Shown here: positions 6,169-41,589 of the stretch, in pieces
How the letters are laid out: every line of letters starts with the position of its first letter
How positions within the stretch are numbered: position 1 is the stretch's first letter
Assembly: GCA_947623775.1 (NCBI GenBank)
Contig: CANQHL010000001.1
Coordinates: 1 to 53,521 of the forward strand
Reading direction: 5' to 3'
Length of the DNA: 53,521 bases
DNA from: an uncultured Clostridia bacterium
GTDB taxonomy: Bacteria; Bacillota; Clostridia; Christensenellales; UBA1242
Translations under genes and position numbers: made by a program
Notes under the pieces: generated by a model
Told to the model about the DNA's origin: nothing
What the model saw: only the letters and a program-made list of their open reading frames with translations
Database searches by the model: none

Positions 6169-7041
6169 ATGAAAAAAGAAGAACTTGAAAAAATTCATAG
6201 CAAGAAAAAGATATTAAATTACTTTTTAAGACGTGATATAACAAGCACCGAAGAAATATTAAGTATTTTTCAAAAAATGCCAGGGGCGATAAGAGGGGAA
6301 AGTTCCAAGGGTTATCCTTATGTGTTTGTGCCGGGCAAGGCAAAAAACAAAGTTTTGTTGACCGCGCATTGTGACACGGTATGGGATGGCAAAGTAAATT
6401 GCAAACAAGATGTCAAGTATAAAAAAGGAGTGTTTTCTTCTGGAAACAAATCTGTCGGAATAGGTGCTGATGATAGGGCGGGGATTGCAATGCTTTATCT
6501 ATTAAAAAACAGCGGCAATTCACTTTTAATCACCACCGGCGAAGAAAGAAAAATGAGTTGTTCAAGATATTTGAGCGAAAGGGAATACGAACTTATAAAT
6601 GATCACAATTTTATAGTTCAACTTGATAAGTGTGGCAACAAGGAATTCAAGTGTTATTCTGTTGGAAGCGAGGAATTTATAGAATATATAAAGCAGCGTA
6701 CCGGCTTCAAATATATCAACCCATATTCATATACAGACATAGTTTCCTTATGCAAAACCATATGCGGTGTAAATTTGTCTGTAGGATATTACAATGAACA
6801 TTCGGCGGATGAATATTTGATTTATGATGAATGGAAAGAAACATTTAAAGCGGCAAAAAAGCTTATAAAAAATTCTCGAAAGTTTGAACTCGATAAAAAA
6901 AATATTGATGAACTTTATGAAGATGAGGACAAATTTGGATACAATGATTTCGACCTGCTAGATCTTATAGAACAGATGAATGAGGAAATAAAAAGAGAAA
7001 ACAAAGATGGATATTATGATATTCCTGAAATTGATTTATAA
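6169..7041 (+). CDS. M28/M20-like zinc peptidase with a roughly 50-aa acidic C-terminal extension
   Basis: LLTAHCDTVWDG, GIGADDRAGIAML and TTGEER match the metal-ligand motifs of co-catalytic zinc peptidases. The tail contains FDLLDLIE and ends YYDIPEIDL. Confidence 0.55.
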   Translation: MKKEELEKIHSKKKILNYFLRRDITSTEEILSIFQKMPGAIRGESSKGYPYVFVPGKAKNKVLLTAHCDTVWDGKVNCKQDVKYKKGVFSSGNKSVGIGADDRAGIAMLYLLKNSGNSLLITTGEERKMSCSRYLSEREYELINDHNFIVQLDKCGNKEFKCYSVGSEEFIEYIKQRTGFKYINPYSYTDIVSLCKTICGVNLSVGYYNEHSADEYLIYDEWKETFKAAKKLIKNSRKFELDKKNIDELYEDEDKFGYNDFDLLDLIEQMNEEIKRENKDGYYDIPEIDL

Positions 7042-8221: not shown

Positions 8222-8436
8222 AAGTTGATTGATAGTAAAATAAAAATATAAAAGTTAACAATCATTTGCATTCAAGGGTGTTTAAGGCAAAAGATTATCA
8301 ATCTTTAAAACCGTTTAAAGAGTTCTTGGAGAGAATCTTATTGATTTTCGTCTAAGAAGCGAAAAAGTTAATGGCTAACTAATGTGATAAATTTTTAAAT
8401 GGCAAACATTTATGTAATGCTATAATGGAGGAAAAA

Positions 8437-8895
8437 ATGGAAATAAAAGATGTATACTTATTCACAATTTACTACAATCAAACTTCAAATAATAAAAGTG
8501 ATGAAAAATTGATATATTGGGATAGTGACGACATTTATCAACTTTCCAATCTTCCTCAAAACACAGTTTTTGTATGTTGTGAAAAATTGGTTAAAGAAAC
8601 AAAAAAGTTTGACGAGGTAAAAAATTACGCGTTTGGTCGCGAGCTTACCGACCAAGACCTTGAAGAGGAACTTGCAAATAATCGTGATGAAAAGGCAAAT
8701 GGGTATATCGCTCATCTACTAGACAGCTACTCGGAAATTGAGGGGGTATTTTGTATCTTCAAAAATAAAGACAAAATATGCGCCTATAATATTTCGCATG
8801 CCGCATGTGAAGTGATGTCCGAAGAACAAATCAAAGACGGGAGGGTTATGAAAAACGTCAAATTTGATGAAAGTGATTATTTGGATTTAGAGTAG
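8437..8895 (+). CDS. YLDLE-tail family protein, member A
   Basis: GGAGG at 8427-8431 favours ATG 8437 (MEIKDVYLF). Shares with the 12961..13428 protein an N-terminal beta segment, the DDIYQLSNLPQNTVFV block, the YAFG block and FCIFKNKDKICAY (compare FIFKNTDKIFSF). Ends DESDYLDLE-stop. Confidence 0.8.
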   Translation: MEIKDVYLFTIYYNQTSNNKSDEKLIYWDSDDIYQLSNLPQNTVFVCCEKLVKETKKFDEVKNYAFGRELTDQDLEEELANNRDEKANGYIAHLLDSYSEIEGVFCIFKNKDKICAYNISHAACEVMSEEQIKDGRVMKNVKFDESDYLDLE

Positions 8896-8904
8896 GAAAA
8901 AGAT

Positions 8905-9048
8905 ATGAAATATCAAAAATCAAATATTATATTGCCTATTACTTAGAAGAGAAAAGCGGAAAAGTTGTGCAAGAAAGACAAAAAAGTGGCATTGCCACAA
9001 ACAAAAGCACCAAAGATGGAGATGGCGATATACATCGATCTTGAATAA
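8905..9048 (+). pseudogene. Mini-ORF or remnant ending in YIDLE, interrupted by an in-frame TAG
   Basis: AGGAAAAAGAT-ATG at 8905. Frame 1 reads MKYQKSNIILPIT-TAG(8944-8946)-KRKAEKLCKKDKKVALPQTKAPKMEMAIYIDLE-TAA. It lies 9 nt after member A and upstream of the shared terminator at 9142. Confidence 0.4.
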
Positions 9049-9141
9049 TTCAACCTATTCGACATTATTTTTAATGATAATGAGAATATTAAATATATAT
9101 TATATGTTTAAATTTATGCCGAAATGTAAAAAAATAAAAAT

Positions 9142-9171
9142 AATATCCAATTTTATTTGGATATTTTTTTT
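9142..9171 (+). terminator. Intrinsic terminator downstream of member A and the mini-ORF
   Basis: AATATCCAA-TTTTAT-TTGGATATT stem-loop followed by a T-run. Confidence 0.65.
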
Positions 9172-9213
9172 AAATGTTATATAATTTTATAGTTAGTTGT
9201 AAAAGGAGAATTT

Positions 9214-11820
9214 ATGAAACAATTTGTTTATCTTTTCAGAGAGGCTGATGGCAAAAATAAAGCTCTCTTTGGCGGCAAAGGTGCAAATCTTGCCGAAATG
9301 ACAAACCTTGGAATGCCTGTTCCACAGGGTTTCACTATCACTACTGAGGCTTGCACTCAATATTACAAAGACGGCAGAAAGATCAATGATCTTATGATGT
9401 CTCAAATTGAGTACAAACTTGGCGAACTTGAAAAAATGACAGGCAAAAAGCTCGGAGATAAGAAAAATCCGCTCCTTGTTTCCGTACGTTCTGGTGCAAG
9501 AGTTTCCATGCCCGGAATGATGGACACAATCTTAAACCTTGGACTTAATGATGAAGTGGTTGAGGGACTTGCCACACTCACAAAAAATCCAAGATTTGCA
9601 TACGATTCATACAGAAGATTTATTCAAATGTTTTCTGATGTTGTTATGCAACAAGAAAAATCAAAATATGAAAGAATTCTTGATAAGGTAAAACAAGAAA
9701 AAGGCGTTCAATATGACAAAGATCTTACTGCAGACGACCTTAAAGAAATTGTAACAATGTTTAAAGCATTGTACGAGAAGTCTCAGGGTGAACCTTTCCC
9801 ACAAGATCCAAGAGTTCAACTGTTGGAAGCAGTAAAAGCCGTTTTCCGTTCTTGGGATAACGAAAGAGCAAATGTTTACAGAAGAATGCACGATATTCCA
9901 TATGAATGGGGTACAGCTGTAAACGTTCAATCAATGGTGTTTGGAAACATGGGAGACACTTCAGGAACAGGTGTTGCATTCTCAAGAAACCCTGCAACCG
10001 GCGAAAATGTTTTATATGGTGAATATCTTATGAACGCACAAGGTGAAGACGTTGTTGCTGGAATAAGAACACCACTTCCAATTTCCGCTCTTGAAAAGCA
10101 AAATCCACTAGTATACAGACAATTTGCAGACATTGCAAAGAAACTTGAAAAACACAATAAAGATATGCAAGACATGGAATTTACCATTGAAAATGGCAGA
10201 CTTTATATGCTTCAAACAAGAAATGGCAAACGTACAGCAAAGGCTGCATTAAAAATCGCTGTGATAACAGAAAAAGAAGCACTTATGATGCTTGACCCTA
10301 AACAACTTGATGCACTTTTGCACCCACAATTTGAGGATAAAGCGTTGAAAGACGCATGCCCAATTGCTGAGGCACTTCCTGCATCTCCGGGGGCTGCATG
10401 CGGAAAAATTGTATTTACTGCAGAAAGAGCAAAGGAACTTGCATCTCAAGGGGAAAAAGTTGTGCTTGTAAGACTTGAAACATCTCCTGAGGATATTGAG
10501 GGTATGGCATCAAGCCAGGGCATATTGACTGCAAGAGGAGGTATGACGTCTCACGCTGCCGTTGTCGCACGTGGAATGGGAACTGCTTGTGTTGCAGGAT
10601 GCTCAGCAATTAAATTTGCAGAAGATGAAAAATCATTTACAATTGAAGGCAAAGTTTACAGAGAGGGTGATGAACTTTCATTTGATGGTTCAACAGGAAA
10701 AGTTTATGATGGCCTTATCAAAACAGAACCTGCTAAAATTTCCGGTGAATTTGCTACAATTATGGAATGGGCTGATAAATATCGTGCTATGCAGGTTAGA
10801 ACAAACGCCGACAATCCAAAAGATGCTAAAAACGCATTCAACTTTGGTGCTCAGGGTGTAGGACTTTGCAGAACAGAACACATGTTCTTTGAAGCAGACA
10901 GAATTCCTGCCGTTAGAGAAATGATTGTATCTTCAACTGTTGAAGAAAGAAAGAAGGCGCTTGCAAAACTTCTTCCAATGCAAAGAAAAGACTTTATTGG
11001 AATTTATAAGGCAATGCAAGGACTTCCTGTTACAATTCGTTTCCTTGATCCACCACTTCATGAATTTTTACCACATGAAGATGAGGACATAAAAGCACTT
11101 GCAAAAGAAATGGGGCTTACATTTGATAAATTAAAACAAACAGTTGCCGATCTTCATGAATTCAACCCAATGATGGGACATCGTGGACTTCGTCTTGCTG
11201 TAACATATCCAGAAATTGCAGAAATGCAAACACAGGCTGTTATCGAAGCCGCAATTGCAGTAAATAAGGAAATGGGCTTCAAGATTGTTCCTGAAATTAT
11301 GATTCCACTCACTTGCGATAGCAAAGAATTCAAATATGTTCGTGATATTGTTGCAAACAAAGCCGATGAGGTTATCAAAGAAAATGGTGTAGATCTTAAA
11401 TACAAGATTGGAACAATGATTGAGATCCCTCGTGCAGCAGTTACTGCAGATGAAGTTGCAAAATATGCTGAATTCTTCTCATTTGGAACAAACGACTTGA
11501 CTCAAATGACTTATGGCTTCAGCCGTGATGATGCAGGTAAATTCCTTGATGTTTACTATGCTAAGAAGATTTTTGAAAGTGATCCATTTGCAAGATTAGA
11601 CCAAAATGGTGTAGGCAAACTTGTTAAGATGGCATGCGACCTTGGAAAGAGTGTTCGCCCAGACATCAAACTTGGAATATGTGGAGAACATGGTGGAGAT
11701 CCATCAAGCGTTGAATTTTGCCATAACGCAGGACTCACATATGTATCTTGCTCACCATTTAGAGTTCCAATTGCAAGACTTGCTGCTGCTCAGGCAAATA
11801 TTAAAAATCCAAGAAATTAA
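9214..11820 (+). CDS. ppdK: Pyruvate, phosphate dikinase
   Basis: 868 aa with an N-terminal ATP-grasp segment (FGGKGANLAEM), the phosphohistidine loop GGMTSHAAVVARGMG and the C-terminal PEP-utilising TIM barrel (GLCRTEHMF, GICGEHGGDP). Confidence 0.95.
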   Translation: MKQFVYLFREADGKNKALFGGKGANLAEMTNLGMPVPQGFTITTEACTQYYKDGRKINDLMMSQIEYKLGELEKMTGKKLGDKKNPLLVSVRSGARVSMPGMMDTILNLGLNDEVVEGLATLTKNPRFAYDSYRRFIQMFSDVVMQQEKSKYERILDKVKQEKGVQYDKDLTADDLKEIVTMFKALYEKSQGEPFPQDPRVQLLEAVKAVFRSWDNERANVYRRMHDIPYEWGTAVNVQSMVFGNMGDTSGTGVAFSRNPATGENVLYGEYLMNAQGEDVVAGIRTPLPISALEKQNPLVYRQFADIAKKLEKHNKDMQDMEFTIENGRLYMLQTRNGKRTAKAALKIAVITEKEALMMLDPKQLDALLHPQFEDKALKDACPIAEALPASPGAACGKIVFTAERAKELASQGEKVVLVRLETSPEDIEGMASSQGILTARGGMTSHAAVVARGMGTACVAGCSAIKFAEDEKSFTIEGKVYREGDELSFDGSTGKVYDGLIKTEPAKISGEFATIMEWADKYRAMQVRTNADNPKDAKNAFNFGAQGVGLCRTEHMFFEADRIPAVREMIVSSTVEERKKALAKLLPMQRKDFIGIYKAMQGLPVTIRFLDPPLHEFLPHEDEDIKALAKEMGLTFDKLKQTVADLHEFNPMMGHRGLRLAVTYPEIAEMQTQAVIEAAIAVNKEMGFKIVPEIMIPLTCDSKEFKYVRDIVANKADEVIKENGVDLKYKIGTMIEIPRAAVTADEVAKYAEFFSFGTNDLTQMTYGFSRDDAGKFLDVYYAKKIFESDPFARLDQNGVGKLVKMACDLGKSVRPDIKLGICGEHGGDPSSVEFCHNAGLTYVSCSPFRVPIARLAAAQANIKNPRN

Positions 11821-11827
11821 AGAAAAA

Positions 11828-11855
11828 ATATGGACATTCAAGTCCATATTTTTTT
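11828..11855 (+). terminator. ppdK intrinsic terminator
   Basis: ATATGGAC-ATTCAA-GTCCATAT (8-bp stem) followed by TTTTTTT. Confidence 0.75.
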
Positions 11856-11869
11856 AATGCGTATAAATT

Positions 11870-12021
11870 TAAAATAATTAATCAATCTAAACAACACTGT
11901 TTTAAAACTAAAAAGAATCCAATCCAAATTAATATGGTGTATATACTAAAACATTATCAAATCCATATTAACATTGTTTATAAACTAAAAAATAGCCAAT
12001 TCAAAATCACTTTGTGTCAAA
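11870..12021. repeat. Degenerate tandem repeat, about 38-bp unit x4 (alternating units give a 76-77-bp periodicity)
   Basis: Units start at about 11870, 11908, 11946 and 11984, each beginning (C)TAAAA. Example: AACACTGTTTTAAAACTAAAAAGAATCCAATCCAAAT (11893) versus AACATTGTTTATAAACTAAAAAATAGCCAATTCAAAA (11970), with roughly three quarters of positions identical in my hand alignment. Confidence 0.45.
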
Positions 12022-12034
12022 ATTTTATGCTAAA

Positions 12035-12521
12035 TTATTCCAAGTCAATATAAGGTCTATCATAAAATCGAGGGTCAACAAATTCAGGGTTATCATCAGA
12101 CTTCTCTTGTGTTGCATTAATTTCATTAATGTGAGCAGGGCTAACAAGCTTTCCCGCTTTTTTACTTCCGTAATCAAAAATGCCGTTTTGAGTTTTATAA
12201 ATCATCAATTCATTTTTATAATCTTTTTTACAATCAACTACAATTTCATTAAGATGTTTTAGGTATTTTATGTATTTGAGAGAATCAGGCAGCGCTTTAA
12301 TTCTCTTAACTTCATTTTCCACATCTGCAATAGAAGCAGGGTAGCCAATAAAAAAAACATCCGTCGCTTTTTGGATTTTGTCCTAGTTTGTAGACGTAGT
12401 CGACATCACTTGGTAAATTTAATTTTTTAATATCATCTTCATCAGTTTCAATGTCTGTAAGGCCTTTATCAAAAGCCTGCGGATTTGTTACCGACCTGAT
12501 ACAATATTTATATTTTCCCAT
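12035..12521 (-). pseudogene. YLDLE-tail family member B, split by a +1 frameshift in an 8-nt homopolymer (track ORFs 12312..12521 and 12035..12322)
   Basis: The upstream ORF reads ...DDIKKLNLPSDVDYVYKLGQNPKSDGCFF and then runs out of frame through T8 (A8 on the + strand, 12350-12357). Removing one T gives ...CFFIGYPASIADVENEVKRIK..., which restores the family [YF]-x-I-G motif and joins the downstream ORF ending DRPYIDLE. A perfect promoter and a GGAG RBS lie upstream. Confidence 0.75.
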
Positions 12522-12537
12522 ATTTAACTCCGCTTAA

Positions 12538-12566
12538 ATTATAGCTGATTTAAAGCATCTTGTCAA
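12538..12566 (-). promoter_or_regulatory. Consensus sigma-A promoter for family member B
   Basis: The minus strand reads TTGACA (12566-12561), a 17-nt spacer, then TATAAT (12543-12538), followed by GGAG and the ATG at 12521. Confidence 0.65.
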
Positions 12567-12648
12567 TATGGAATTGGTGTATAATGTATTATATTTAAGG
12601 AAAAGAGCATTTTAAACAATATTTTTACAACCTCTTTTAAAATTTTAC

Positions 12649-12677
12649 TTTACATTTTTAAAAAAGAATGATATAAT
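12649..12677 (+). promoter_or_regulatory. Sigma-A promoter for rpoZ
   Basis: TTTACA (12649-12654), a 17-nt spacer, then TATAAT (12672-12677). GAGAGGTG RBS before ATG 12708. Confidence 0.55.
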
Positions 12678-12707
12678 AGTCAAGAAAATATAGAGAGGTG
12701 AAGTATT

Positions 12708-12908
12708 ATGATGATTGAACCATCAATTGATAGTTTACTTAACAAGGTAGGCGGGAATAGATATGTGCTTTGCAATGTAATCGCAAAAAGAGCAAAAGAA
12801 ATTGAAAGTGTAAGGAGACTTGAACTTGCCGACCAAGACAAAAAGGCGATAAGTATTGCTTGTGAGGAAGTTGCAAACGGCAAGATAAAGCCATCAGAGG
12901 AAAAATAA
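12708..12908 (+). CDS. rpoZ: DNA-directed RNA polymerase subunit omega
   Basis: MMIEPSIDSLLNKVGGNRYVLCNVIAKRAKEI matches the conserved omega N-terminus (PSIDxLL...RYxL...AKRAR). 66 aa. Confidence 0.9.
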   Translation: MMIEPSIDSLLNKVGGNRYVLCNVIAKRAKEIESVRRLELADQDKKAISIACEEVANGKIKPSEEK

Positions 12909-12930
12909 AAAAGTCAAAACACAAATAAAA

Positions 12931-12962
12931 GCACTCCGAGTTAAAAAGTGGAGTGCCTTTTT
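12931..12962. terminator. Bidirectional terminator shared by rpoZ and the convergent tail-family operon
   Basis: GCACTCC-(12-nt loop)-GGAGTGC, flanked by an A-run upstream and a T-run downstream. Confidence 0.65.
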
Positions 12963-13428
12963 ATTCCAAATCCAAATATGGTTTATCTTCAAAGTTTGGC
13001 TTGTAAAGTATGCTTCTGTTAAGTTTGCCATCAAAAATGCAGTTTGAGGGCAATAAAGTCGCATTTTTTCGCGGAAAACTGAAAATTTTATCTGTGTTTT
13101 TGAAAATAAAATTAGTTTTTGAAACTGATTCAAAGTTTTCTCTTAAATATTTAAGAAATGTCACATAATTTGAGTTTGTATTTTTTGAATATTGTAAATT
13201 TATAAGATTTTTATCAACATCTTGAAATTTTATTTTTTCACCAATAAAAAAAGTTTTGTTTTCAACATATTTGTTGCTTATTTTATCATATCTCATACAA
13301 AATACCGCCACGGTTTTCTCGGGTAAACCGGTGACATTAAATATGTTGTTATTATCACTGAATTGTTCTTTGATTTTTTCTTTTTTCTTATTATCAAAAT
13401 ATAAAATTTTATATTTGTAAATTATCAT
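12961..13428 (-). CDS. YLDLE-tail family protein, member C (last gene of the 5-gene operon)
   Basis: 155 aa with MIIYKYKILYF beta start, NIFNVTGLPEKTVAVF, TFFIGEKI, FIFKNTDKIFSF and LLPSNCIFDGKL blocks. Ends EDKPYLDLE-stop. Confidence 0.85.
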   Translation of the reverse strand: MIIYKYKILYFDNKKKEKIKEQFSDNNNIFNVTGLPEKTVAVFCMRYDKISNKYVENKTFFIGEKIKFQDVDKNLINLQYSKNTNSNYVTFLKYLRENFESVSKTNFIFKNTDKIFSFPRKNATLLPSNCIFDGKLNRSILYKPNFEDKPYLDLE

Positions 13429-13448
13429 TATGTTTTGTTCCTATTAAA

Positions 13449-14246
13449 TTATTCTAAATCATCATAAGCCTTACTTTCTGGGTCGTAAAATCCCTCTGCA
13501 TTGAAAAGTGCGGGACTTAAAATCTTTGTATTTTTGTCAATAATTGGGTGAATTGTCCCTGTTTTGTCTTTAAAAGCATTTGAAAGGTTGTGGCTTTTCA
13601 TAAAATCATATAGTGACTTATCTGCCAACATTACCTGTGATAATGAAAGAGGCGTTCCAATGGCAAAAGTCTCGATATTGATTTGTTCATTGTCTGGCGA
13701 CAAATCGAAAAGTTCAATGTAATTTTCTTTTGAGCTGGTTATTTGTACTTCCTCTAAATTGTGACTTTGAAGTTCATAGTGCTTTATATATCCTTCTGTA
13801 TATGAATAAACAAAGCGTGGAATATTTCTTTCAATGTTAGGATAACTTGCCGTAAGAGCAAAATGCCTTATTTGATTTTTATTGTTTCCGCTTTTGGTGA
13901 ACAAGATTGAGGATGGAAGAAGATTTGTTCTATCAGAAAATTCAACCAATGGTCCTTTATATAGGTGAAAAAGGGTTTTTGCACCTGTTCTTTTAAACTT
14001 TTTTAATTCCTGTGAATTTTCTCCATAAATAAGTTCTGCTTTTTCACGCGAAATCTTTTCGCCGATGAAATAGGATTTTGAATTTCCGTTTTTCTTGGTT
14101 AAAATAACCATATTTGTATCTTCGGGCAGTGGTATTTTGAAAATATCATCGGTATTAAAATGTTTTGTTGCAATCAAATTGAATTCGCCCTTGAAGAATT
14201 GAATTTCCACATCATCTGAAATTATTTTTGGTTTCAATGGTTGCAT
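13449..14246 (-). CDS. YLDLE-tail family protein, member D (apparent internal duplication of the family module)
   Basis: 265 aa. First half has DDIFKIPLPEDTNMVIL, SYFIGEKISREKAELIYGENS and NLLPSSILF. Second half repeats the pattern with TFAIGTPLSLSQV and KILSPALF. Ends ESKAYDDLE-stop. Confidence 0.85.
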   Translation of the reverse strand: MQPLKPKIISDDVEIQFFKGEFNLIATKHFNTDDIFKIPLPEDTNMVILTKKNGNSKSYFIGEKISREKAELIYGENSQELKKFKRTGAKTLFHLYKGPLVEFSDRTNLLPSSILFTKSGNNKNQIRHFALTASYPNIERNIPRFVYSYTEGYIKHYELQSHNLEEVQITSSKENYIELFDLSPDNEQINIETFAIGTPLSLSQVMLADKSLYDFMKSHNLSNAFKDKTGTIHPIIDKNTKILSPALFNAEGFYDPESKAYDDLE

Positions 14247-14274
14247 TTTTACCTCCGCTTAAGTAATAAAAAAT

Positions 14275-14865
14275 TTATTCTAGGTCTAAATATCCGTTAT
14301 CTTGATAGGTGCTTTTAATTTCCTCAGACTCGGAACCAGCATTTTGAGTCAAATTTTTATAATTGCTAGAATGCTTATAATATCCCTTTTCATCAAAGCA
14401 ATTTTCGTCAACAAATCCGTATTTGCATAAAAAGTCTGTTGCCCATATAGTTTGGGATTCGCTTCTAAGAAGAACAAGTCCGTCAAGGTAATACTTCTCA
14501 TTTTCTTTTTTAATATAAGGTGATTGAATTGAAATGCTTGTTAAAGGTGGGTTGTCGTTGATATATTTTTGTGATGACAAAAACTTTGAATAGCCGGACG
14601 GAAACAATTCTCTAATTTGTTCCCTTGAATAGTATTTACCTATGCAGTAAACAAGGTGATTGTAAGGACGTGATGATTTTGTCTCCCCATCATCGGCTAT
14701 CATTGCCACTTGCCTTTTAAAAAGAATTATGTTTGCATCTTTCGGAACGGGCATTGTGATATTGGACAGTTTGCAATCATCAATATCATATTTTGCAATA
14801 GGATTTATTGAATTGTCTGGGCCCACACTTGCAAATTCCACAAAAAATTTTTCAGTTGTTCTCAT
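14275..14865 (-). CDS. YLDLE-tail family protein, member E
   Basis: 196 aa with DDCKLSNITMPVPKDANIILF, VYCIGKYYSREQIRELF and the insertion KYYLDGLVLLRSE, which is shared with member G (RYQYDGWFLLRDG). Ends QDNGYLDLE-stop. Confidence 0.85.
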   Translation of the reverse strand: MRTTEKFFVEFASVGPDNSINPIAKYDIDDCKLSNITMPVPKDANIILFKRQVAMIADDGETKSSRPYNHLVYCIGKYYSREQIRELFPSGYSKFLSSQKYINDNPPLTSISIQSPYIKKENEKYYLDGLVLLRSESQTIWATDFLCKYGFVDENCFDEKGYYKHSSNYKNLTQNAGSESEEIKSTYQDNGYLDLE

Positions 14866-14874
14866 AATGTCTCC

Positions 14875-15300
14875 TTATTCTAAATCAAGATATCCGTTGT
14901 CACTGAAATCAGAAAGTTTGCCGTTTTCATTTATCATGTCTTTATCGATAAGATGAACGTTCAAGATGTGTGACAGTGGGAAAATATTTCCCGATTTCAT
15001 TATAATGGCATTTTTTAAATGATGTTTTTGTATGTATTTGTACTGAGTTGACGCTTCTCCAAACTTTTCATAAATTTCCCGAGATGTAAACGATGTTCCT
15101 ATGCAATAAGCATCAACATTTTTTGGATTTGAATAAATGCCGTCAATGAGTTCATCTTTTTCATAAAGAGTGATTAAATCTGCATTTTTTGGAATGTTAA
15201 CTTTAAAAATATCCTTAGCTTGTATTTCTTGCTCATTGTCGGGCGTAAGGATTTTGTTTTGAGAATATTTATAAAAATTTACAAAATATTTTTTGTTCAT
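14875..15300 (-). CDS. YLDLE-tail family protein, member F
   Basis: 141 aa with KYFVNFYKY, KDIFKVNIPKNADLITL, AYCIGTSFTSREIYEKFGEAS and NIFPLSHIL blocks. Ends SDNGYLDLE-stop. Only 9 nt separate it from member E. Confidence 0.85.
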   Translation of the reverse strand: MNKKYFVNFYKYSQNKILTPDNEQEIQAKDIFKVNIPKNADLITLYEKDELIDGIYSNPKNVDAYCIGTSFTSREIYEKFGEASTQYKYIQKHHLKNAIIMKSGNIFPLSHILNVHLIDKDMINENGKLSDFSDNGYLDLE

Positions 15301-15313
15301 TTTCTCTCCATTT

Positions 15314-15943
15314 TTATTCGATTTCTATAACATCGTCATCATAATTTTCTTCATCTGTACAAATTTCTTCATCATATAAACTGTCTGGATTGACTGTTGA
15401 ATTATTGATAGATGCTGTTTTGCTGATAAATCCGTTGCTATCAATAAGGCTTTTATCAAGAAGATTGCCAGCATAACCCCAGCCGTATGCAAATGAACCA
15501 TCACGAAGAAGAAACCATCCATCATATTGATAACGCCCGGTGACAGGGTCTTGAGAAATAGGTAAACCTTCATTGAATAGTTTGCAGACGTAAACAGTGT
15601 GTGCAGGGTTTCTACCACCTTGTAATTCTGCTTCACCTTCGAGGATAAATTGATATTCAGCTGAATTTTCGCCAAAAATATCGATAATTTGTTGTTTTGT
15701 AAGATAAGTGCCAATCATAAATGATTTACTGTTCGCACACGTTTCTGTTATTTTTGGCTCTTTTTTAAAAAGTCGTTTTTTTTCAATAACTTCATAATGT
15801 TCCAAAATAATGCCTATGGCGTTGTCTGGTATTTGTCCCAAATCATCAAATCCAAAACTTGGAATATCGCGTGTTAAAATTGTTCTATTGTTAATGTCTT
15901 TAAAAGTTGCAACTGTTTTGAAATAGACTCGCTTGGTTGCCAT
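15314..15943 (-). CDS. Tail-family protein, member G (first gene of the operon; degenerate tail VIEIE)
   Basis: 209 aa with RVYFKTVATF, FDDLGQIPDNAIGIIL and SFMIGTYLTKQQIIDIFGENSAEY blocks. The acidic C-terminus ends NYDDDVIEIE-stop. GGAGG RBS upstream. Confidence 0.8.
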   Translation of the reverse strand: MATKRVYFKTVATFKDINNRTILTRDIPSFGFDDLGQIPDNAIGIILEHYEVIEKKRLFKKEPKITETCANSKSFMIGTYLTKQQIIDIFGENSAEYQFILEGEAELQGGRNPAHTVYVCKLFNEGLPISQDPVTGRYQYDGWFLLRDGSFAYGWGYAGNLLDKSLIDSNGFISKTASINNSTVNPDSLYDEEICTDEENYDDDVIEIE

Positions 15944-15971
15944 TTCAGCCTCCTAACTATTAATATAATTA

Positions 15972-16000
15972 ATTATATCAATAAAATAAATAATTGTCAA
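15972..16000 (-). promoter_or_regulatory. Perfect consensus sigma-A promoter for the five-gene tail-family operon
   Basis: The minus strand reads TTGACA (16000-15995), a 17-nt spacer, then TATAAT (15977-15972). AGGAGG and ATG 15943 follow about 25-30 nt downstream. Confidence 0.7.
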
Positions 16001-16032
16001 TATAGAAAATATTTTCGTAATAAAATAAAACA

Positions 16033-16061
16033 TTGACAAAATAAATATTTTATATTATAAT
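16033..16061 (+). promoter_or_regulatory. Perfect consensus sigma-A promoter for the divergent gene 16084..16476
   Basis: TTGACA (16033-16038), a 17-nt spacer, then TATAAT (16056-16061), followed by AAGGAGA and ATG 16084. Confidence 0.7.
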
Positions 16062-16083
16062 AAAGTTATAAAAGGAGAATGCA

Positions 16084-16476
16084 ATGGAAGAAAAGGTTGA
16101 CAAATTGTTATCATCAGCAAGAGTGCGTGGAGAGTGGGAATATAAAGCACTTCTTGATAGATATATTGGTGATAACGCCAAAGACGAGACAAAAGAAGAT
16201 GATGTAAGGCTTGCAAAAGTTATTAGACAATTGCTTGATTTTTATAAAGAACTTGGAGACAAGGAAAGGTATACTTTTGTTAGTGATGTTCTTGACTATT
16301 ACACATTGGTTGTAAAAGATGAGAAAGATATTTTTGGCAGACAAACACTTGAATTTCATGTGCCAGACAAAATTCGCAAAAGTTTATATAAGGGCTTTTT
16401 GGAGTTTCATGAAAACAGAAACCAAGAATTGTTAAATGATGCAGATGAATTATTTAAAGATGAAACTGAATTATAA
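16084..16476 (+). CDS. Hypothetical acidic, predicted-helical 130-aa protein
   Basis: ORF with a strong RBS and promoter. No motif recognised. No signal peptide or TM segment. Ends LFKDETEL. Confidence 0.6.
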   Translation: MEEKVDKLLSSARVRGEWEYKALLDRYIGDNAKDETKEDDVRLAKVIRQLLDFYKELGDKERYTFVSDVLDYYTLVVKDEKDIFGRQTLEFHVPDKIRKSLYKGFLEFHENRNQELLNDADELFKDETEL

Positions 16477-16576
16477 TTTTAAAAAATAAACAAAAAACCA
16501 GTCTTAAATTAAAAATTTATTTATACATTGAAAGGAGAAGAATTTATTCCTTAGCGTATAGAAATTTTTTAGCCTA

Positions 16577-16602
16577 AGGAAAAGAAATACTTTTCCTTTT
16601 TT
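16577..16602 (+). terminator. Intrinsic terminator
   Basis: AGGAAAAG-AAATA-CTTTTCCT followed by TTTTTT. Confidence 0.65.
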
Positions 16603-16650
16603 ATTGTCTTTTTTTATGAATTATGATAAAATATGTAACGGAGGTTAAAA

Positions 16651-17028
16651 ATGAAAAAATTAGTATTTTATAAATGCGAAATTTGTGGAAATGTTGTAAT
16701 TAAACTTGTTGATAAACATGTGCCTGTTTTTTGTTGCGGCAAGGTCATGAATGAAATTACACCAAACACACAGGAGGCTGCAACTGAAAAGCATATTCCT
16801 GTTGTTGAAATTAAAGATAATGAGGTTAAAGTAAAAGTTGGCTCAGTTGAACATCCAATGAACGAAGAACACTATATTTCCCATATAATATTAAAGACGG
16901 AAAAAGGATTTTGTGTTCGGGAGTTATCACCATCTGATAAACCAGAAACAACATTTATTATGTCACCAGATGATAAAGTAGAGTGTGTTTACAGTTTGTG
17001 TAATTTGCACGGACTTTGGCAAAATTAG
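16651..17028 (+). CDS. dfx: Desulfoferrodoxin (2Fe superoxide reductase)
   Basis: N-terminal desulforedoxin-like CEICGN...CCG cysteine cluster, plus a neelaredoxin domain (EKHIPV, HPMNEEHYI, CNLHGLW). Confidence 0.85.
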   Translation: MKKLVFYKCEICGNVVIKLVDKHVPVFCCGKVMNEITPNTQEAATEKHIPVVEIKDNEVKVKVGSVEHPMNEEHYISHIILKTEKGFCVRELSPSDKPETTFIMSPDDKVECVYSLCNLHGLWQN

Positions 17029-17036
17029 GAGTTTAA

Positions 17037-17432
17037 ATGGCAAAAAATTCGAAAAAAAGCAAAAAAAATGATAAAAAACGGCAAATTTTCTTATTTTCTA
17101 TGGTTATTATGCTTTTGATGGGGGCAGTCGTTGGTTATTTTATCGGCAAGGCAGTAATAAAAAATGATGAATTTGTAATAATAGGAAATGATGTCGTTGA
17201 AATCTATGTCGGGCAAACCTATCAAGATGAGGGGGCAAAAGCAATCTCATTTGGAAAAGATATTTCAAGCAAGATAGAGACCGAAAGCAATTTAAATCAA
17301 AATGAAGAGGGGCAATATTACATAAAATACACTGTAAACAATATTAGATATAAAGGTGTGGAGCGTTATCGTACAATAATTGTAAAAGCGTTGCCGGATG
17401 GTGAAGCGGAGGTGCAAAATGAAAGCATCTAG
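17037..17432 (+). CDS. Membrane-anchored protein with a DUF5011/Ig-like extracellular domain
   Basis: Lys-rich N-terminus, one TM helix (IFLFSMVIMLLMGAVVGYFIG), then IYVGQTYQDEGAKA...GQYYIKYTV...RTIIV, which resembles DUF5011-type Ig folds. Confidence 0.5.
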   Translation: MAKNSKKSKKNDKKRQIFLFSMVIMLLMGAVVGYFIGKAVIKNDEFVIIGNDVVEIYVGQTYQDEGAKAISFGKDISSKIETESNLNQNEEGQYYIKYTVNNIRYKGVERYRTIIVKALPDGEAEVQNESI

Positions 17433-18525
17433 GATAATATTGTACACACTTATGGCAATTTTATTGTTTTTGGGTGGTGCGTTTGCGGGCTTTTGTGTTT
17501 ATACAATGGTTATTGCAAAACCTAAAAGTGATGTATATGTGTCGGGTGACCTATCCATTCATTTTATGGAACTTGGGAATCAGTATGTGGGAGACTCTAT
17601 TTTCATTCAATGCGGTAAAAATGATATACTTATAGATGCCGGTTCGAAAGAAAATAGTGCGACAACAATTATAAATTATGTTGATAATTATGTGAGCGAC
17701 AATAAACTTGAATATGTGATTGCCACACATGCACATCAAGATCATATTGCAGCATTTCCAAGCACGGGAAGCGTTGAGGGTGTTTTTGAACATTATGATG
17801 TTGGAACGATAATTGATTTTCCGAGAACAGATAAAGACACAGATATACTAAAAAAATATAGAAGTGCGGTGGATAAAGAAGTTGAAAATGGCAGTAAACA
17901 TTATACGGCATTAGAGTGCTTTAACAATGAGAATGGTGCGGAAAGGAAATATAAATTATCAGAGAATGTCGAACTTGAAATTTTATATAACTATTACTAT
18001 GAAAACAAATCATCTGATGAAAACAATTATTCGGTATGTGTTATGATAAATCAAGGTGACAATCATTATCTTTTCACCGGAGACCTTGAAAAAGAAGGTG
18101 AAATACATCTTGTAGATTATTATGAAGATAATTTCGGAGGACTTCCACATTGCGTTTTATACAAGGCTGGACATCATGGCTCAGGAACTTCATCAACGGA
18201 AGAACTTCTTGCAGCAATTACTCCTGAGATTGTTTGTATATGCACATGTGCCGGCACAAAGGAATATACATCAAATAATGATAACCAATTTCCATATCAG
18301 GTTACAGTAGATAAACTTGCAAAATATACTGATAAAGTGTATGTGACAACAGTTGTCGATGTATATGATAATGATGGTAAATGGACTGTAAAGTCAATGA
18401 ATGGCAACATAGTTTTCACTGTTAAAAATGGGAAATATGAAATTTCTTGCAGCAATAACAATTTAAAACTCAAAGATACTGAATGGTTTAAAAATAAAAG
18501 GATATGTCCTGAAAATTGGAAATAA
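17419..18525 (+). CDS. Membrane-anchored MBL-fold hydrolase (ComEC C-terminal-domain-like)
   Basis: GGAGGTG RBS before ATG 17419. N-terminal TM helix, then LSIHFMELGN...DSIFIQ...ILIDAG...ATHAHQDHI...GDLE...KAGHHGS, typical of the ComEC/Rec2-related beta-lactamase domain. Confidence 0.7.
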   Translation: MKASRIILYTLMAILLFLGGAFAGFCVYTMVIAKPKSDVYVSGDLSIHFMELGNQYVGDSIFIQCGKNDILIDAGSKENSATTIINYVDNYVSDNKLEYVIATHAHQDHIAAFPSTGSVEGVFEHYDVGTIIDFPRTDKDTDILKKYRSAVDKEVENGSKHYTALECFNNENGAERKYKLSENVELEILYNYYYENKSSDENNYSVCVMINQGDNHYLFTGDLEKEGEIHLVDYYEDNFGGLPHCVLYKAGHHGSGTSSTEELLAAITPEIVCICTCAGTKEYTSNNDNQFPYQVTVDKLAKYTDKVYVTTVVDVYDNDGKWTVKSMNGNIVFTVKNGKYEISCSNNNLKLKDTEWFKNKRICPENWK

Positions 18526-19042
18526 TTTTGATAAAAATGCAAAAAATTATGAAAAACGCTGAAAAAAAACATCAAAATTATTAAATTATTGAAAAATTTG
18601 ATGTATTGCAAGAAAAATTTGCAGAAAAATTTTGATTTTTTTGAAGTAACGTGTACAAAAAAAGAACAGATTATTCTGCTCTTTTTTGTTTGTGTTTTAA
18701 ATATATATATCAAAAATTAGGTATTTAATAATTTTCAAAGTTGTTTAAAGATTTATAGTAAGATTATTTTTAACTTAATTAATATTAGTATAAAAAAGTT
18801 TAATTAACTTTAGTTTAGTTTAAATTTATATTTAAAAAAGAGAAGTACTAAAACTCATGTACATAATAACTATTTTTGCTTTAAATCTATCTGACGCAAA
18901 GAATAAAAATCATGGCATTACATTAAAAATAAGTTATGAATTTGGTTTAAGAAAATAATGATTAAAGGCAGATTTATGGGCATCTTGCCAATAATTATAC
19001 ACATCATCTTACATATCATCTTAATCCTTTATATAAAATAAA

Positions 19043-19060
19043 GAGTAGGAAAACCTACTC
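19043..19060 (-). terminator. Intrinsic terminator overlapping the stop codon of gene 19055..19795
   Basis: The minus strand reads GAGTAGG-TTTT-CCTACTC followed by TTTATTTTAT. The stem includes the final Glu and stop codons. Confidence 0.55.
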
Positions 19061-19795
19061 TAAGTCAAGAAATAATCCATTGTTGTAGTTATCATGTTCT
19101 GTTACGCTTTGTGGGTTAGGTGAGTGTACATTCTTTTGTTCATTTTCGACTCTTTTTAAAAGAGGGGCGAGATATTTAAATCCACTTAAAGCCACAACCG
19201 CTTCGGTCAAGTCTGTAAAATGTCGAAAATATTCTTCTACGCAAGGTTCGTGTGGATTTTCGCTAACTACTCTATTAACAAATGAACTTAAATTTAAATT
19301 ATGCAAAATTATATCATAAACATTGCCGTAATTTGAAATCATATCTTGTATTTTTGATTCACCATATTTGTCAAATGCGTTTTTTAACTTAGTTAAATTA
19401 TATTTTGCTATGGGGTATTTATATTTTTCTTCATCAGTAATAAAAAATATTTCCTTATAAGCCGTTGCAATTGACATTTTCATTTCATATTCGTTGGTAA
19501 ATTTTTCAAGATTGGTAATCTTGGTTTTAAAATATGATGATGGCAAATGGCAATGCCGTAAATCTTGAATTAAAACACATATATTTGGTAATTTTTCATT
19601 TTGGTCATCTGAATTATCATGAAAATCACCTGTTAATATATAAGGTGGTGCATCATTAGCTAAACTTTTTGCGATTTCAAGATACTGCTTCCATTTTTCA
19701 TAAATGTATGCGTTTTGAATTGTTATTTCGGGGCAGGGTTGAGTTGATAGAAATTCAGCCAACTTCTCTGCAGCATAAGCATCAGAAAATGTCAT
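19055..19795 (-). CDS. Hypothetical helical protein carrying the family C-terminal tail (FLDLE) on an unrelated body (member H)
   Basis: 246 aa with an AGGAGA RBS. The N-terminal and central sequence shows none of the A-G family blocks. A polar linker (ENEQKNVHSPNPQSVTEHDNYNNG) is followed by LFLDLE-stop. Confidence 0.75.
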   Translation of the reverse strand: MTFSDAYAAEKLAEFLSTQPCPEITIQNAYIYEKWKQYLEIAKSLANDAPPYILTGDFHDNSDDQNEKLPNICVLIQDLRHCHLPSSYFKTKITNLEKFTNEYEMKMSIATAYKEIFFITDEEKYKYPIAKYNLTKLKNAFDKYGESKIQDMISNYGNVYDIILHNLNLSSFVNRVVSENPHEPCVEEYFRHFTDLTEAVVALSGFKYLAPLLKRVENEQKNVHSPNPQSVTEHDNYNNGLFLDLE

Positions 19796-19845
19796 AAACT
19801 TTCTCCTGCAAAAAGTATAGCACCGTTGATATAAAAAGTCAACTG

Positions 19846-20718
19846 CTAGTTTAGATTGTCTTGTATTTCACTTATTTTATCATTTTCAATGGAAAAATTG
19901 TAAATTATATTTTTATTATTGGAAATTGCGAAGCAGGAACATGGGTCAATCATATAAAAATAACTTACATCACCAAAAAATCCTTTTAATGTTTTTTCAT
20001 TTAGAGAACTTTTGAGATTGGATGAAAGATAATCCATTGCACCCGAGAAATCACCGCATTTGACTGCACTCATAAATTTATAAGGCAAAAGTTCATTTGG
20101 AGACATTTCTTCATTGCGTGAAAAATCTTGTTCTCGCAATTTAAGTCCATCTTTGTCAATAAAATATTTGCGGGTAATATTTTTATAATCTTCATTTTCT
20201 TCAAAAAGAGAGAACCCATTTTTATCAATTACAATGTCGCGCGCTGAAAACATTTTTGCAGAATTTGTCTTAATATTATAACAAATGATGTTTTTTTTAT
20301 CATTTTTATCAAATTTTACATAGTTTATGTGGTAAAAATGTCCAACAGTGATATTTGAAACGGGGTGAAACAGGTTGATGATTTTTTTATGATTTACTCC
20401 ATAAAATGTGATTTCTTTTTGTCCAATTTCAATTTTTGATGTGATGCCGTAGCTTTTAAAATCATGCACTACAACGTTTTCTGCAGAAAAGCCATCTAAT
20501 AAAAATACAAGACGTTTGCCGTCTTTTTCGATTATTCTATAATATGGAGCGGGTGTAGAGAAGTTGATTTCAAATGAAAATCTATCACGTTTTTCGGGGT
20601 AGATATATATTGGGTCTAGTATATCATCTAGAATAACATGTTCATTTATTGAAATATGTTCGTTTATGTCTCTATATTTAACCACGCATGGATATGAAGT
20701 GTAAATAATAGTTTTCAT
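19846..20718 (-). CDS. Hypothetical 290-aa protein, apparently co-transcribed with member H
   Basis: ORF 50 nt upstream of member H on the same strand. No recognisable motif, signal peptide or TM segment. Ends EIQDNLN, so it lacks the tail. Confidence 0.6.
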   Translation of the reverse strand: MKTIIYTSYPCVVKYRDINEHISINEHVILDDILDPIYIYPEKRDRFSFEINFSTPAPYYRIIEKDGKRLVFLLDGFSAENVVVHDFKSYGITSKIEIGQKEITFYGVNHKKIINLFHPVSNITVGHFYHINYVKFDKNDKKNIICYNIKTNSAKMFSARDIVIDKNGFSLFEENEDYKNITRKYFIDKDGLKLREQDFSRNEEMSPNELLPYKFMSAVKCGDFSGAMDYLSSNLKSSLNEKTLKGFFGDVSYFYMIDPCSCFAISNNKNIIYNFSIENDKISEIQDNLN

Positions 20719-20862
20719 AATATAAAAATATGAGAGAATAAAGAGATTAATTACAAAATTTTGTCAAAAAATGATTATAAATACATAAAATAAACCAATT
20801 TGATGTAAGTTTATGTATAAATTCCTTTATTTGGTCTATAATTTGCGCAAGGAGTGAAAATT

Positions 20863-21582
20863 ATGAAAGGAATTTGGAAAAACAGCGAAGTAAAAGAATT
20901 ATTTTCCGTGGTCGAGGATTATAAGGGAAGCAATCGTTCATTGAAAGATGCGTTTATCTCTCATGCACAAAAATATGGACGAAAACCAAACAGTGTGAGA
21001 AATTATTATTATCACGAAGTGGATAATTTGAAAAATGACGGAAAAAGATTGGAAAAACTTGGAATAGATTTATCTCTTCACAATAAGGCGGCAATATCTT
21101 ACTTTTCGCAGGAGGAGGAAGAAAAACTGATGAAAGAAGTGGATGAAATGGTGAAAAAGGGAGTTTCTGTGAGAAAAGCATGCCTAAGTTTATCAGGTGG
21201 AGATGTAAGTCAAATGTTGAGGTATCAAAATAAATACAGAAATTATATTTTAAAAAACAAGCCGCAACCTCCAAAAGACAATGTTATAACTTTTAAAAAG
21301 GCACAGCGAACATTGACAGATGGCGAGGTTCAATCTTTGTTTATGGGGCTTGTGAGACTTGTGAAGAAAAACGCCCTTGAAGAAAGTGAGAGTTTATATA
21401 AAGAAAAGTTAAGCAAGGCAAATGATGAATTGCGAAAACTGCTTTTAAAACTTTCTTTGCGGGAACGAGATGTTGAGAAATTAAAAGCGGAAATGGACAA
21501 ATTGAAAAACGACAACATGTTGTTGGAAAGCAAAATGTTTCAAATGCGGTGCAAAAAAGCCGAAGAGTTGAATAAAGAATAA
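20863..21582 (+). CDS. Putative DNA-binding protein with two Myb/SANT-like (RsfA-like) repeats and a C-terminal coiled coil
   Basis: AAGGAG RBS before ATG 20863. WKNSEVKELFSVVEDY...SVRNYYYHEV and a second degenerate repeat resemble RsfA/Myb-type helix-turn-helix repeats. The C-terminus is heptad-rich (LRERDVEKLKAEMDKLKNDN). Confidence 0.4.
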   Translation: MKGIWKNSEVKELFSVVEDYKGSNRSLKDAFISHAQKYGRKPNSVRNYYYHEVDNLKNDGKRLEKLGIDLSLHNKAAISYFSQEEEEKLMKEVDEMVKKGVSVRKACLSLSGGDVSQMLRYQNKYRNYILKNKPQPPKDNVITFKKAQRTLTDGEVQSLFMGLVRLVKKNALEESESLYKEKLSKANDELRKLLLKLSLRERDVEKLKAEMDKLKNDNMLLESKMFQMRCKKAEELNKE

Positions 21583-41251: not shown

Positions 41252-41480
41252 ATTCTTCCAAGAATATAACATTTCCACATAGTACATCATAATATGAAAA
41301 AGTTTGAATATTTTTTTCTTCTATTGCAACAGTAAAAACACTTGGATAAACATCTTTAATAATACCACTTAGAGTGTCGAATTTTTTTCGTCCACGATTG
41401 ACATTCATTTCAACCTCTCTTCCTTTCAAAGAAAGAATTTTTGTTTTGACTTGTTCAATACTAAGCCCTGCTTTTCTCAT
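41250..41480 (-). CDS. veg: Veg protein
   Basis: 76 aa. IEQVKTKILSLKGREVEMNVNRGRKKFDTLSGIIKDVYPSVFTV...SYYDVLCGNV matches the conserved Veg family pattern. Confidence 0.8.
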   Translation of the reverse strand: MRKAGLSIEQVKTKILSLKGREVEMNVNRGRKKFDTLSGIIKDVYPSVFTVAIEEKNIQTFSYYDVLCGNVIFLEE

Positions 41481-41589
41481 GGTGATTCCTCCTAAAAAAT
41501 TTTTGCCAACTTTTCAAAATTTTAAACATTTTAGTAATAAAATCAACTTACGCCTCGTAATATATCTCGTAAATGTATTTGGAGGTCGT

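Follow-up and report, generated by a model that had tools for sequence, protein, structure and literature searches.

A stretch of 53,521 nucleotides from the genome of an uncultured Clostridia bacterium (assembly GCA_947623775.1, contig CANQHL010000001.1, positions 1 to 53,521; hereafter, the window) contains a group of genes whose protein products end in the same few residues: Tyr or Phe, any residue, Asp, Leu, and a terminal Glu. This C-terminal tail is a real feature that occurs far beyond chance and is evolutionarily maintained. It belongs to no known family of tags, has three near-invariant positions, sits on two unrelated folds, and is borne by up to 14 proteins per genome. The best overall explanation is that the tail is a portable docking or address peptide that is read in trans, most likely as a recruitment or export signal (probability about 0.4). 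Cells use short C-terminal address tags to direct many unrelated proteins to a single machinery, be it for secretion, degradation, or assembly, and the definition of each new tag has opened up a system for study and supplied an engineering handle. Identification of its reader would establish the tail as the basis of a new targeting pathway in anaerobic gut Firmicutes and would show what a rapidly evolving repertoire of genes, apparently expressed at a high level, does. The reach is limited, as the family is so far known from one narrow clade of uncultured Clostridia, with about 25 cluster representatives among 1.84 billion.

Structure and conservation of the tail

An initial annotation of the window, made from its letters, had described nine open reading frames (ORFs) ending in a common pentapeptide. 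A six-frame ORF listing combined with a regular-expression scan reproduces the listed residues exactly at the ends of all nine reading frames; however, two of the frames (8905..9048 and 12035..12521) are not intact ORFs. Between 8.4 and 19.8 kilobases (kb), the ending [YF]-x-D-L-E-stop is carried by six genes that are intact, one with a frameshift, and one decayed remnant, and one further gene (15314..15943) carries the degenerate ending VIEIE. No other ORF of at least 60 amino acids (aa) ends in DLE in any of the six frames of the whole window, where the sole extra match is a 24-aa junk ORF at 28802; the claim that the remaining coding sequences lack the tail is thus upheld. Based on the window's own amino-acid composition, 0.046 endings of the form [YF]xxLE are expected among the 63 ORFs of at least 100 aa, and six are observed (Poisson P = 1.3e-11). 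The codons that encode the tail differ among copies (Tyr as TAT or TAC; Leu as CTT, TTG, TTA, or CTA; Asp as GAT or GAC; Glu as GAA or GAG; stop as TAA or TAG), and therefore selection acts on the peptide, as had been proposed, and not on a DNA repeat.

The pentapeptide is present as described; the conserved motif, however, is longer and covers about 10 residues, with the consensus [FY]-x-[DN]-[KDN]-x-Y-[IL]-D-L-E-COOH. In a set of 42 distinct tail-bearing proteins, position -1 is always Glu (42/42), position -2 is Leu in all but one protein (41/42), and position -5 is Tyr in 38, with Phe in three more. The intervening positions are less strict: position -3 is Asp in 28 proteins (Asn in 5, Glu in 4), and position -4 is Ile in 22 and Leu in 13. 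Farther from the end, Lys (20) or Asp (9) is common at position -7, Asp or Asn is found at position -8 in 32 of the 42 (18 and 14, respectively), and an aromatic residue is found at position -10 in 26 (Tyr in 19, Phe in 7). Upstream of position -11 the information content is at background, and the functional unit is therefore about 10 residues long; judging from the aligned sequences, it appears to require a free C-terminus. A literature search for the pentapeptides YLDLE, YIDLE, YINLE, and FLDLE found nothing relevant.

The linkers that precede the tail vary widely in both length and composition, some being rich in Asn, Ser, and Glu and others in Gln, Pro, and Lys. In the AlphaFold2 model of the main family of tail proteins (see below), the last 12 or so residues have a predicted local distance difference test (pLDDT) score of 58-60, as compared with more than 90 in the body, and in the model of the second, unrelated body the last 29 residues score below 50 and are disordered. 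The tail is accordingly modeled as a flexible element that is predicted to pack on neither body. The bearers are proteins of the cytoplasmic type, none with a transmembrane helix or a signal peptide (Kyte-Doolittle means over 19 residues reach 1.06 at most), which agrees with the initial annotation and rules out both a Sec/Tat signal and a sortase-type sorting signal, as there is neither an N-terminal signal peptide nor a C-terminal transmembrane anchor.

Two families of tail-bearing proteins

All copies in the window except 19055-19795 (i.e., seven) align as a single, highly divergent family with 15-28% pairwise identity, which bears out the proposed group of paralogues. The family shares a set of N-terminal motifs (SDSDDI..L..LP and, farther along, Y-x-I-G) in addition to the tail, and residues P40 and G67 are invariant. 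The most conserved elements of the body are these surface-loop motifs of the N-terminal domain. An AlphaFold2 model built from a 22-sequence alignment (pLDDT 90; predicted template modeling score 0.81) has an α/β architecture, with a four-stranded N-terminal β unit, three helices, and C-terminal hairpins. Neither sequence nor structure connects this family to a curated family or a known fold. Searches of Pfam, NCBIfam, PHROGs, and PADLOC with all bodies gave no match above noise, and none of the 22 members matches a Pfam family at E ≤ 1, including WXG100, LXG, and DUF6572. Foldseek comparison of the family model with PDB and BFVD found no fold match (best E 0.03 and 0.02, respectively; template modeling score <0.3).

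Relatives of the main family are few. Exhaustive searching of 1.84 billion cluster representatives with HMMER returned only 25 proteins at E ≤ 1e-3, of which one, an 815-aa repeat protein, is an apparent false positive and two are fragments. The remaining complete members end in Y-[IL]-[DNS]-L-E, in a close variant (e.g., YLWLE), or in a decayed form (…EIE), and two have a short extension after the motif. A word-indexed protein search with the family profile recovered only the window's own proteins and one copy in ENA, and the JGI metagenome collection contains no relative of the family. In IMG/VR, a DNA pattern for the tail that disregards the body gave nine matches, all of them chance hits on short ORFs, and hence the family is not phage-borne. 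A 62-aa phage zinc-finger protein (L006:3505-3693, minus strand; IMGVR_UViG_3300033120_000756) ends in FSDEENYIDLE, which fits the extended motif, and its gene lies three genes from one for a protein resembling single-stranded DNA-binding protein (SSB) with a classic DDDLPF tail. Outside the clade, no other gene that looks real has a tail-like ending, and this one is probably a chance match.

A scan of genome collections with a subfamily alignment of the main family yielded two loci, both in metagenome-assembled genomes (MAGs) of uncultured Clostridia from rabbit gut (“Lapin”). The first, on CANQKH010000007.1 (hereafter, the sister genome), is syntenic with the window, sharing genes for an ABC (ATP-binding cassette) ATPase, an ASCH protein, ppdK, rpoZ, desulfoferrodoxin, an immunoglobulin-like protein, and a metallo-β-lactamase (MBL) hydrolase; it has 13 tail genes, eight upstream and five downstream of ppdK. 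The second, on CANQBU010000083.1, has eight tail genes upstream of ppdK. Tandem arrays are also found on short ENA and Logan contigs, including L002 and L003, and one 372-aa member consists of the family domain and an N-terminal extension that matches no known domain.

The number of tail genes differs among genomes (8, 13, and at least 8), and their sequences diverge far more than those of their neighbors. Between the window and the sister genome, tail genes are 26-48% identical or have no detectable orthologue, whereas the flanking genes are 52-95% identical (e.g., PPDK 95%, AddB 74%, and the MBL hydrolase 77%). Overall, the bodies drift to 15–48% identity while Glu(-1), Leu(-2), and Tyr(-5) stay near invariant. 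The bodies, tandemly amplified around ppdK and with fast turnover, evolve by birth and death, whereas the tail is frozen under strong purifying selection. So far the tail proteins are known only from a narrow clade of uncultured Clostridia, which includes the two rabbit-gut MAGs.

The protein encoded at 19055-19795 is a second and unrelated body. In BLASTP comparisons with the main family only the tail aligns, and hhalign gives a probability of 0.2%. The protein is predicted to be all-helical, with 11 helices, although the model is of low confidence (pLDDT 60), and a Foldseek search with this low-confidence model gave no match. The contrast between α/β and all-α predicted folds, together with the hhalign result, confirms that the tail sits on two unrelated bodies. 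Orthologues of the second body retain the ending: P0027 (36% identity by BLASTP, 38% by alignment) ends in NGLYINLE, and P0028 (41% identity) ends in NGLFIGLE. An aromatic-x-x-L-E-COOH ending is therefore kept in three lineages (LFLDLE, LYINLE, and LFIGLE). In all three, the gene lies directly downstream of a gene encoding a 288-290-aa protein (62% identity). In the window this is the 290-aa protein at 19846-20718, which, from its position, is likely an operon partner of the second body; it has no match in Pfam, NCBIfam, or PDB and, used as an anchor, no relative in the JGI metagenome collection. This second body is the only one known to carry the tail, and no unrelated tail-bearing protein occurs in about 100 kb of two genomes. 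Both the main family and the second body are undescribed protein families.

The initial annotation had proposed that the tail is a portable short linear motif, and had named as contrary outcomes a characterized Pfam family for the bodies, orthologues that lack the tail, and a comparable frequency of the tail among unrelated proteins. The proposal is supported: the tail is found on two bodies, is predicted to be flexible, and is kept at 15-48% identity by orthologues of both bodies in other genomes, the bodies have no Pfam family, and about 100 kb of two genomes encode no unrelated bearer.

The tail as a probable docking or address peptide

The tail works most like a C-terminal docking or recruitment tag, outside any described family of such tags. 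The EEVD-COOH tail of Hsp70 and Hsp90, a eukaryotic system, is read by tetratricopeptide repeat (TPR) carboxylate-clamp domains. Like the tail described here, it follows a flexible linker and has the pattern hydrophobic(-5)-x-acidic(-3)-hydrophobic(-2)-acidic(-1)-COOH (I-E-E-V-D, as compared with Y-L-D-L-E and V-I-E-I-E), and it is a tag for docking and not for degradation. The likeness is one of pattern only, and the present tail is bacterial. The SSB tail (D-D-D-I/L-P-F-COOH), a hub-docking peptide, is also an acidic, disordered C-terminal peptide with hydrophobic anchors that recruits its bearer to partners. In that case, however, one protein with a terminal Phe has many partners, whereas here many proteins have one tail with a terminal Glu. 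The β-clamp-binding pentapeptide QL[SD]LF, often C-terminal, has a central L-D-L identical to that of the tail, yet the tail departs from it at both defining anchors, with Tyr or Phe instead of the Gln of position 1 and Glu instead of the Phe or Leu of position 5, and is not a β-clamp motif. Cargo-loading peptides of encapsulins or microcompartments are likewise rejected, as the motif is unlike such Gly/Ser-Leu-rich or amphipathic-helix peptides and no shell-protein domains are found among the window genes.

Among secretion signals, the closest parallels are those recognized by coupling proteins of type IV secretion systems (T4SSs). Substrates of VirB/D4 systems carry a charged C-terminal signal. 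T4SS signals in general are, like the tail, unstructured, located at the extreme C-terminus, portable, and carried by many fast-evolving, unrelated substrates. The Glu-rich (E-block) signals bound by the Dot/Icm coupling complex (PMC5802825) through DotM (PMC5802825, PMC7251119) are also acidic, and a highly conserved VirD4-family ATPase is present in the same genomes as the tail. In contrast to these signals, the tail motif is far sharper (Y-x-D-L-E-COOH, with three near-invariant positions) and has neither a Glu-rich block nor an Arg-rich tail; it is found in a Gram-positive organism and, in the window and the sister contig region, is accompanied by no channel genes and no DotM-, IcmS-, or IcmW-type adaptors.

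That the tail is a docking motif read in trans is probable. In the preferred reading, the free carboxylate of the terminal Glu, Leu(-2), and Tyr(-5) would dock together in one pocket of a single shared reader, a pocket that would combine a carboxylate clamp with hydrophobic sub-sites, and through the tail this reader would recruit a changing repertoire of cargo proteins. Every complete true member of the main family found so far keeps the tail or a decayed form of it. Recruitment or export is favored on two grounds. First, a constant unstructured C-terminal signal, a changing repertoire, and the lack of a Sec signal make up the anatomy of substrates of the FtsK/VirD4 class, whose ATPases recognize unstructured C-terminal signals; precedents are the binding of Glu-rich C-terminal signals by the Dot/Icm coupling complex (PMC5802825) and that of a YxxxD region, common to variable immunity proteins, by EssC D1 (PMC12558993). 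Second, the hydrophobic(-5)-x-acidic(-3)-hydrophobic(-2)-acidic(-1)-COOH pattern is that of carboxylate-clamp docking tails such as EEVD and not that of known bacterial C-degrons. By analogy with such substrates, the tail may be presented as a recruitment or export signal to a membrane-bound substrate-receptor ATPase of the FtsK/VirD4 class, a tentative proposal that has somewhat less than an even chance of being correct.

The window encodes one such ATPase, at 39115-41169, which the initial annotation had singled out as an ATPase to be screened against the tail peptide and which is now identified as a VirD4-type coupling protein. It matches the Pfam families T4SS-DNA_transf, TraG-D_C, and TrwB_AAD_bind, scores 245 bits against NCBIfam conju_CD1115 (cut-off 250), and has a Walker A motif and two N-terminal transmembrane helices. 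The gene (T4CP, for type IV coupling protein) is set among sporulation and housekeeping genes in the order degV-T4CP-sipL-spoIIR-sleB-ypeB, and a syntenic copy lies between degV and sipL in the sister genome (L023:10001-12055); about 100 kb of the two genomes contain no further conjugation or T4SS genes. The two copies are 95.5% identical, as compared with 75-88% for their neighbors, and 36% of the codons for identical residues differ, as compared with 41-50%. Synonymous divergence is similar to that of the neighbors, and recent horizontal transfer is therefore rejected as the cause of the high identity; the combination indicates an old divergence under very strong constraint. The constraint on the ATPase equals that on PPDK and far exceeds that on the genes beside it, which suggests, at the sequence level, that it has a domesticated, non-conjugative role. 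It is the only candidate found for the reader of the tail, and a rather doubtful one. Still less likely is the most specific version of the idea, an unknown Gram-positive recruitment or export route in which this chromosomal, non-conjugative VirD4-like ATPase would be domesticated as the receptor for fast-evolving Y-x-D-L-E-COOH cargo. A peptidase at 6169..7041, also put forward for such a screen, has only a weak M28 match and is not conserved at that position in the sister genome.

Several observations weigh against recruitment or export through such an ATPase. No known T4SS signal resembles Y-x-D-L-E, whether of the positively charged, E-block, or BID type. Neither the 53.5-kb window nor some 51 kb of the sister contig contains genes for a translocation channel (VirB4, VirB6, VirB8), a relaxase, or a type VII secretion system (T7SS; essC, esaA, essB, esxA). 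The co-occurrence of the tail with the VirD4-like gene rests on two related genomes only, and the model of the second body is of low confidence. Finally, an intracellular scaffold would account equally well for consensus σA promoters and abundant proteins of the cytoplasm.

Such a scaffold is the strongest of the alternatives, though itself unlikely. The tail would be an assembly tag that docks on a cytoplasmic hub, or the tail proteins on each other, to form a hetero-oligomer without any export; in one variant, the tail would bind head-to-tail to the conserved N-terminal β-domain of the main family. The concentration of body conservation in the surface loops of that domain (SDSDDI..L..LP, Y-x-I-G, and the invariant P40 and G67) is consistent with this idea, as are the predicted flexible tether of the tail, the promoters, which suggest abundant vegetative proteins, and the absence of secretion channel genes from the window and the sister contig region. 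However, the conserved patch of the N-terminal domain is acidic, as is the tail, and AlphaFold2 did not dock the tail in cis. The second body, moreover, keeps the tail without having the N-terminal β-domain, and fast divergence with turnover in copy number is unusual for the parts of one structural assembly.

It is less likely again that the tail is a C-terminal degron by which an AAA+ protease (ClpXP, ClpCP, Lon, or FtsH) or an adaptor controls the levels of its bearers jointly. An unstructured, portable element at the extreme C-terminus has the anatomy of ssrA-like degrons, and a common tail would co-regulate many paralogues. Well-characterized bacterial C-degrons, however, end in non-polar or basic residues (LAA, VAA, LCN, or RRKKAI), and an invariant terminal Glu preceded by Leu and Asp is atypical. 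The tail has no LAA-type or basic terminal residues and is thus not a C-degron of the ssrA-like type read by ClpX, ClpA, or FtsH. Constitutive degradation of 8-14 paralogues expressed from consensus-strength promoters would be wasteful, and the arrays have no linked gene for a protease or an adaptor.

The initial annotation had pointed out that Y-x-x-x-E also fits the YxxxD/E signal of T7SS substrates, and 38 of the 42 tails do match it formally, with Tyr(-5) and Glu(-1). There is also a precedent in Streptococcus suis, in which variable immunity proteins, encoded in gene arrays, share a constant C-terminal region with a YxxxD motif (EIC-CR/DUF6572) that binds EssC D1 (PMC12558993). The formal match is not matched by the bodies: the known carriers of these T7SS signals are helical hairpins or have a helical region of about 50 aa, whereas the tail is a disordered stretch of 10 residues on what is, in the main family, a predicted α/β fold. 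The 11-helix second body, with its low-confidence model, is likewise not taken as a helix-turn-helix body of the WXG100, PE, LXG, or Lap-like kind. No match to WXG100, LXG, or DUF6572 is found, and EIC-CR is further rejected because only about 10 residues are conserved. Leu(-2), which the T7SS motif does not require, is as invariant as Tyr and Glu, and about 100 kb of two genomes contain none of the T7SS genes listed above and no EccC or other core ess/ecc genes. Recognition of the tail by EssC as that of a T7SSb substrate or targeting factor is therefore very unlikely.

The idea that the terminal Glu or the Tyr offers a handle for a post-translational reaction (e.g., ATP-grasp ligation, poly-glutamylation, or Tyr modification) has little to recommend it. 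A C-terminal Glu is used for such ligation or glutamylation in Pup and in ribosomal protein S6, the target of RimK, and the terminal Glu here is invariant and Tyr(-5) nearly so; however, neither genome has a gene for an ATP-grasp enzyme, a ligase, or a kinase linked to the arrays, and the conserved positions -10, -8, and -7 suggest an extended binding epitope. Equally improbable is that the tail has no separate function and is simply the conserved end of one paralogue family, captured by accident at the 3' end of 19055..19795. In its favor, that family supplies seven of the eight or nine window copies, and only one second body is known. Against it, the tail is the best-conserved part of proteins 15-28% identical, lies outside the predicted fold, and has been maintained on the second body through codon changes in three lineages at 36-41% identity.

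Gene arrangement, promoters, and neighboring genes

The coordinates of the tail genes, their promoters, and the associated genes are collected in Table 1.

Table 1. Tail genes, promoters, and associated genes of the window
Feature	Position	Strand	Remarks
σA-type promoter, extended -10, ATGGCA-16-TGcTATAAT	8399..8426	+	serves 8437..8895
Main-family member, 152 aa, tail FDESDYLDLE	8437..8895	+	last copy before ppdK
27-codon remnant ORF ending MAIYIDLE	8965..9048	+	in-frame TAA at 8944-8946 breaks 8905..9048
Main-family member, frameshifted, tail FYDRPYIDLE	12035..12521	-	T8 run near 12347-12354
Perfect TTGACA-17-TATAAT promoter	12538..12566	-	serves frameshifted 12035..12521 copy
Main-family member, 155 aa, tail FEDKPYLDLE	12961..13428	-	
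Enlarged main-family member, 265 aa, tail ESKAYDDLE	13449..14246	-	identical copy on ENA contig L001
Main-family member, 196 aa, long N/S/E-rich linker, tail YQDNGYLDLE	14275..14865	-	
Main-family member, 141 aa, tail FSDNGYLDLE	14875..15300	-	
Main-family member, 209 aa, degenerate tail NYDDDVIEIE	15314..15943	-	first gene of minus-strand array
Perfect TTGACA-17-TATAAT σA promoter with TG	15972..16000	-	drives array 15943→12961
Helical second body, 246 aa, tail YNNGLFLDLE	19055..19795	-	unrelated to main family
σA-like promoter TTGACT-17-TATACT, TG	19814..19842	-	serves 19055..19795
Conserved protein, 290 aa, no tail	19846..20718	-	immediately upstream of second body
Orphan VirD4/TraG-type coupling ATPase	39115..41169	+	putative candidate reader of the tail

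The preferred start of the first tail gene is 8437, which matches the public protein P0002, and its orthologue in the sister genome is 48% identical; its AlphaFold2 model has a pLDDT of 90 and a flexible tail. Three cysteines of this 152-aa protein (C48, C115, and C124) are invariant in no subfamily but A3, and could be the ligands of a metal site or the partners in a disulfide absent from the other subfamilies. The short frame that ends at 9048 is most likely a decayed copy of a tail gene. In the frameshifted copy, deletion of one T from the T8 run restores the family motif CFFIGYP, and an intact homologue (P0008) ends in FFDKPYIDLE; the frameshift could be that of a true pseudogene, a homopolymer sequencing error, or a slippage-prone site. 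The 141-aa member has an orthologue in the sister genome with 46% identity and the ending NYLWLE, and a homologue of the 209-aa member (P0007) ends in DDDNKEIE.

Tail genes carry vegetative σA consensus promoters. The minus-strand array also has a strong AGGAGG ribosome-binding site, and both tail-gene arrays of the sister genome have TTGACT-17-TATAAT promoters. From these elements, the tail proteins are apparently highly expressed. The window is rich in sporulation genes (SpoIIP, SpoIIR, SipL, SleB, and YpeB), but sporulation-specific expression of the tail genes is rejected because their promoters are of the σA consensus. An Rfam scan of the window found no RNA family.

Three perfect (12/12) TTGACA-17-TATAAT promoters lie inside 4 kb, of which two serve tail genes (Table 1). 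The third (16033-16061, plus strand) drives a divergent gene for a small acidic helical protein (16084-16476), which adjoins the array in both genomes and is 52% identical between them. Divergent from the operon of the second body is a gene (20854-21582, plus strand) for a Myb/SANT-like DNA-binding protein with a C-terminal coiled coil; it is 84% conserved and resembles the prespore regulator RsfA.

An 866-aa protein (28510-31110, plus strand) has transmembrane segments at its N-terminus and also contains a long coiled coil, a lengthy low-complexity stretch of acidic character, and basic motifs of the KRGRPRK/AT-hook-like kind. It matches no family and is 75% conserved in the sister genome, where it lies downstream of addAB. 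The protein is rejected as a reader of the tail because it is made up of membrane, coiled-coil, and acidic low-complexity regions and lacks a peptide-binding domain. Directly downstream of the VirD4-like gene, the SipL homologue (41374-43104, plus strand) ends in LVLFYQRVE in both genomes. This ending is a loose Y(-5)-x-x-V-E match to the skeleton of the tail and is likely a coincidence.

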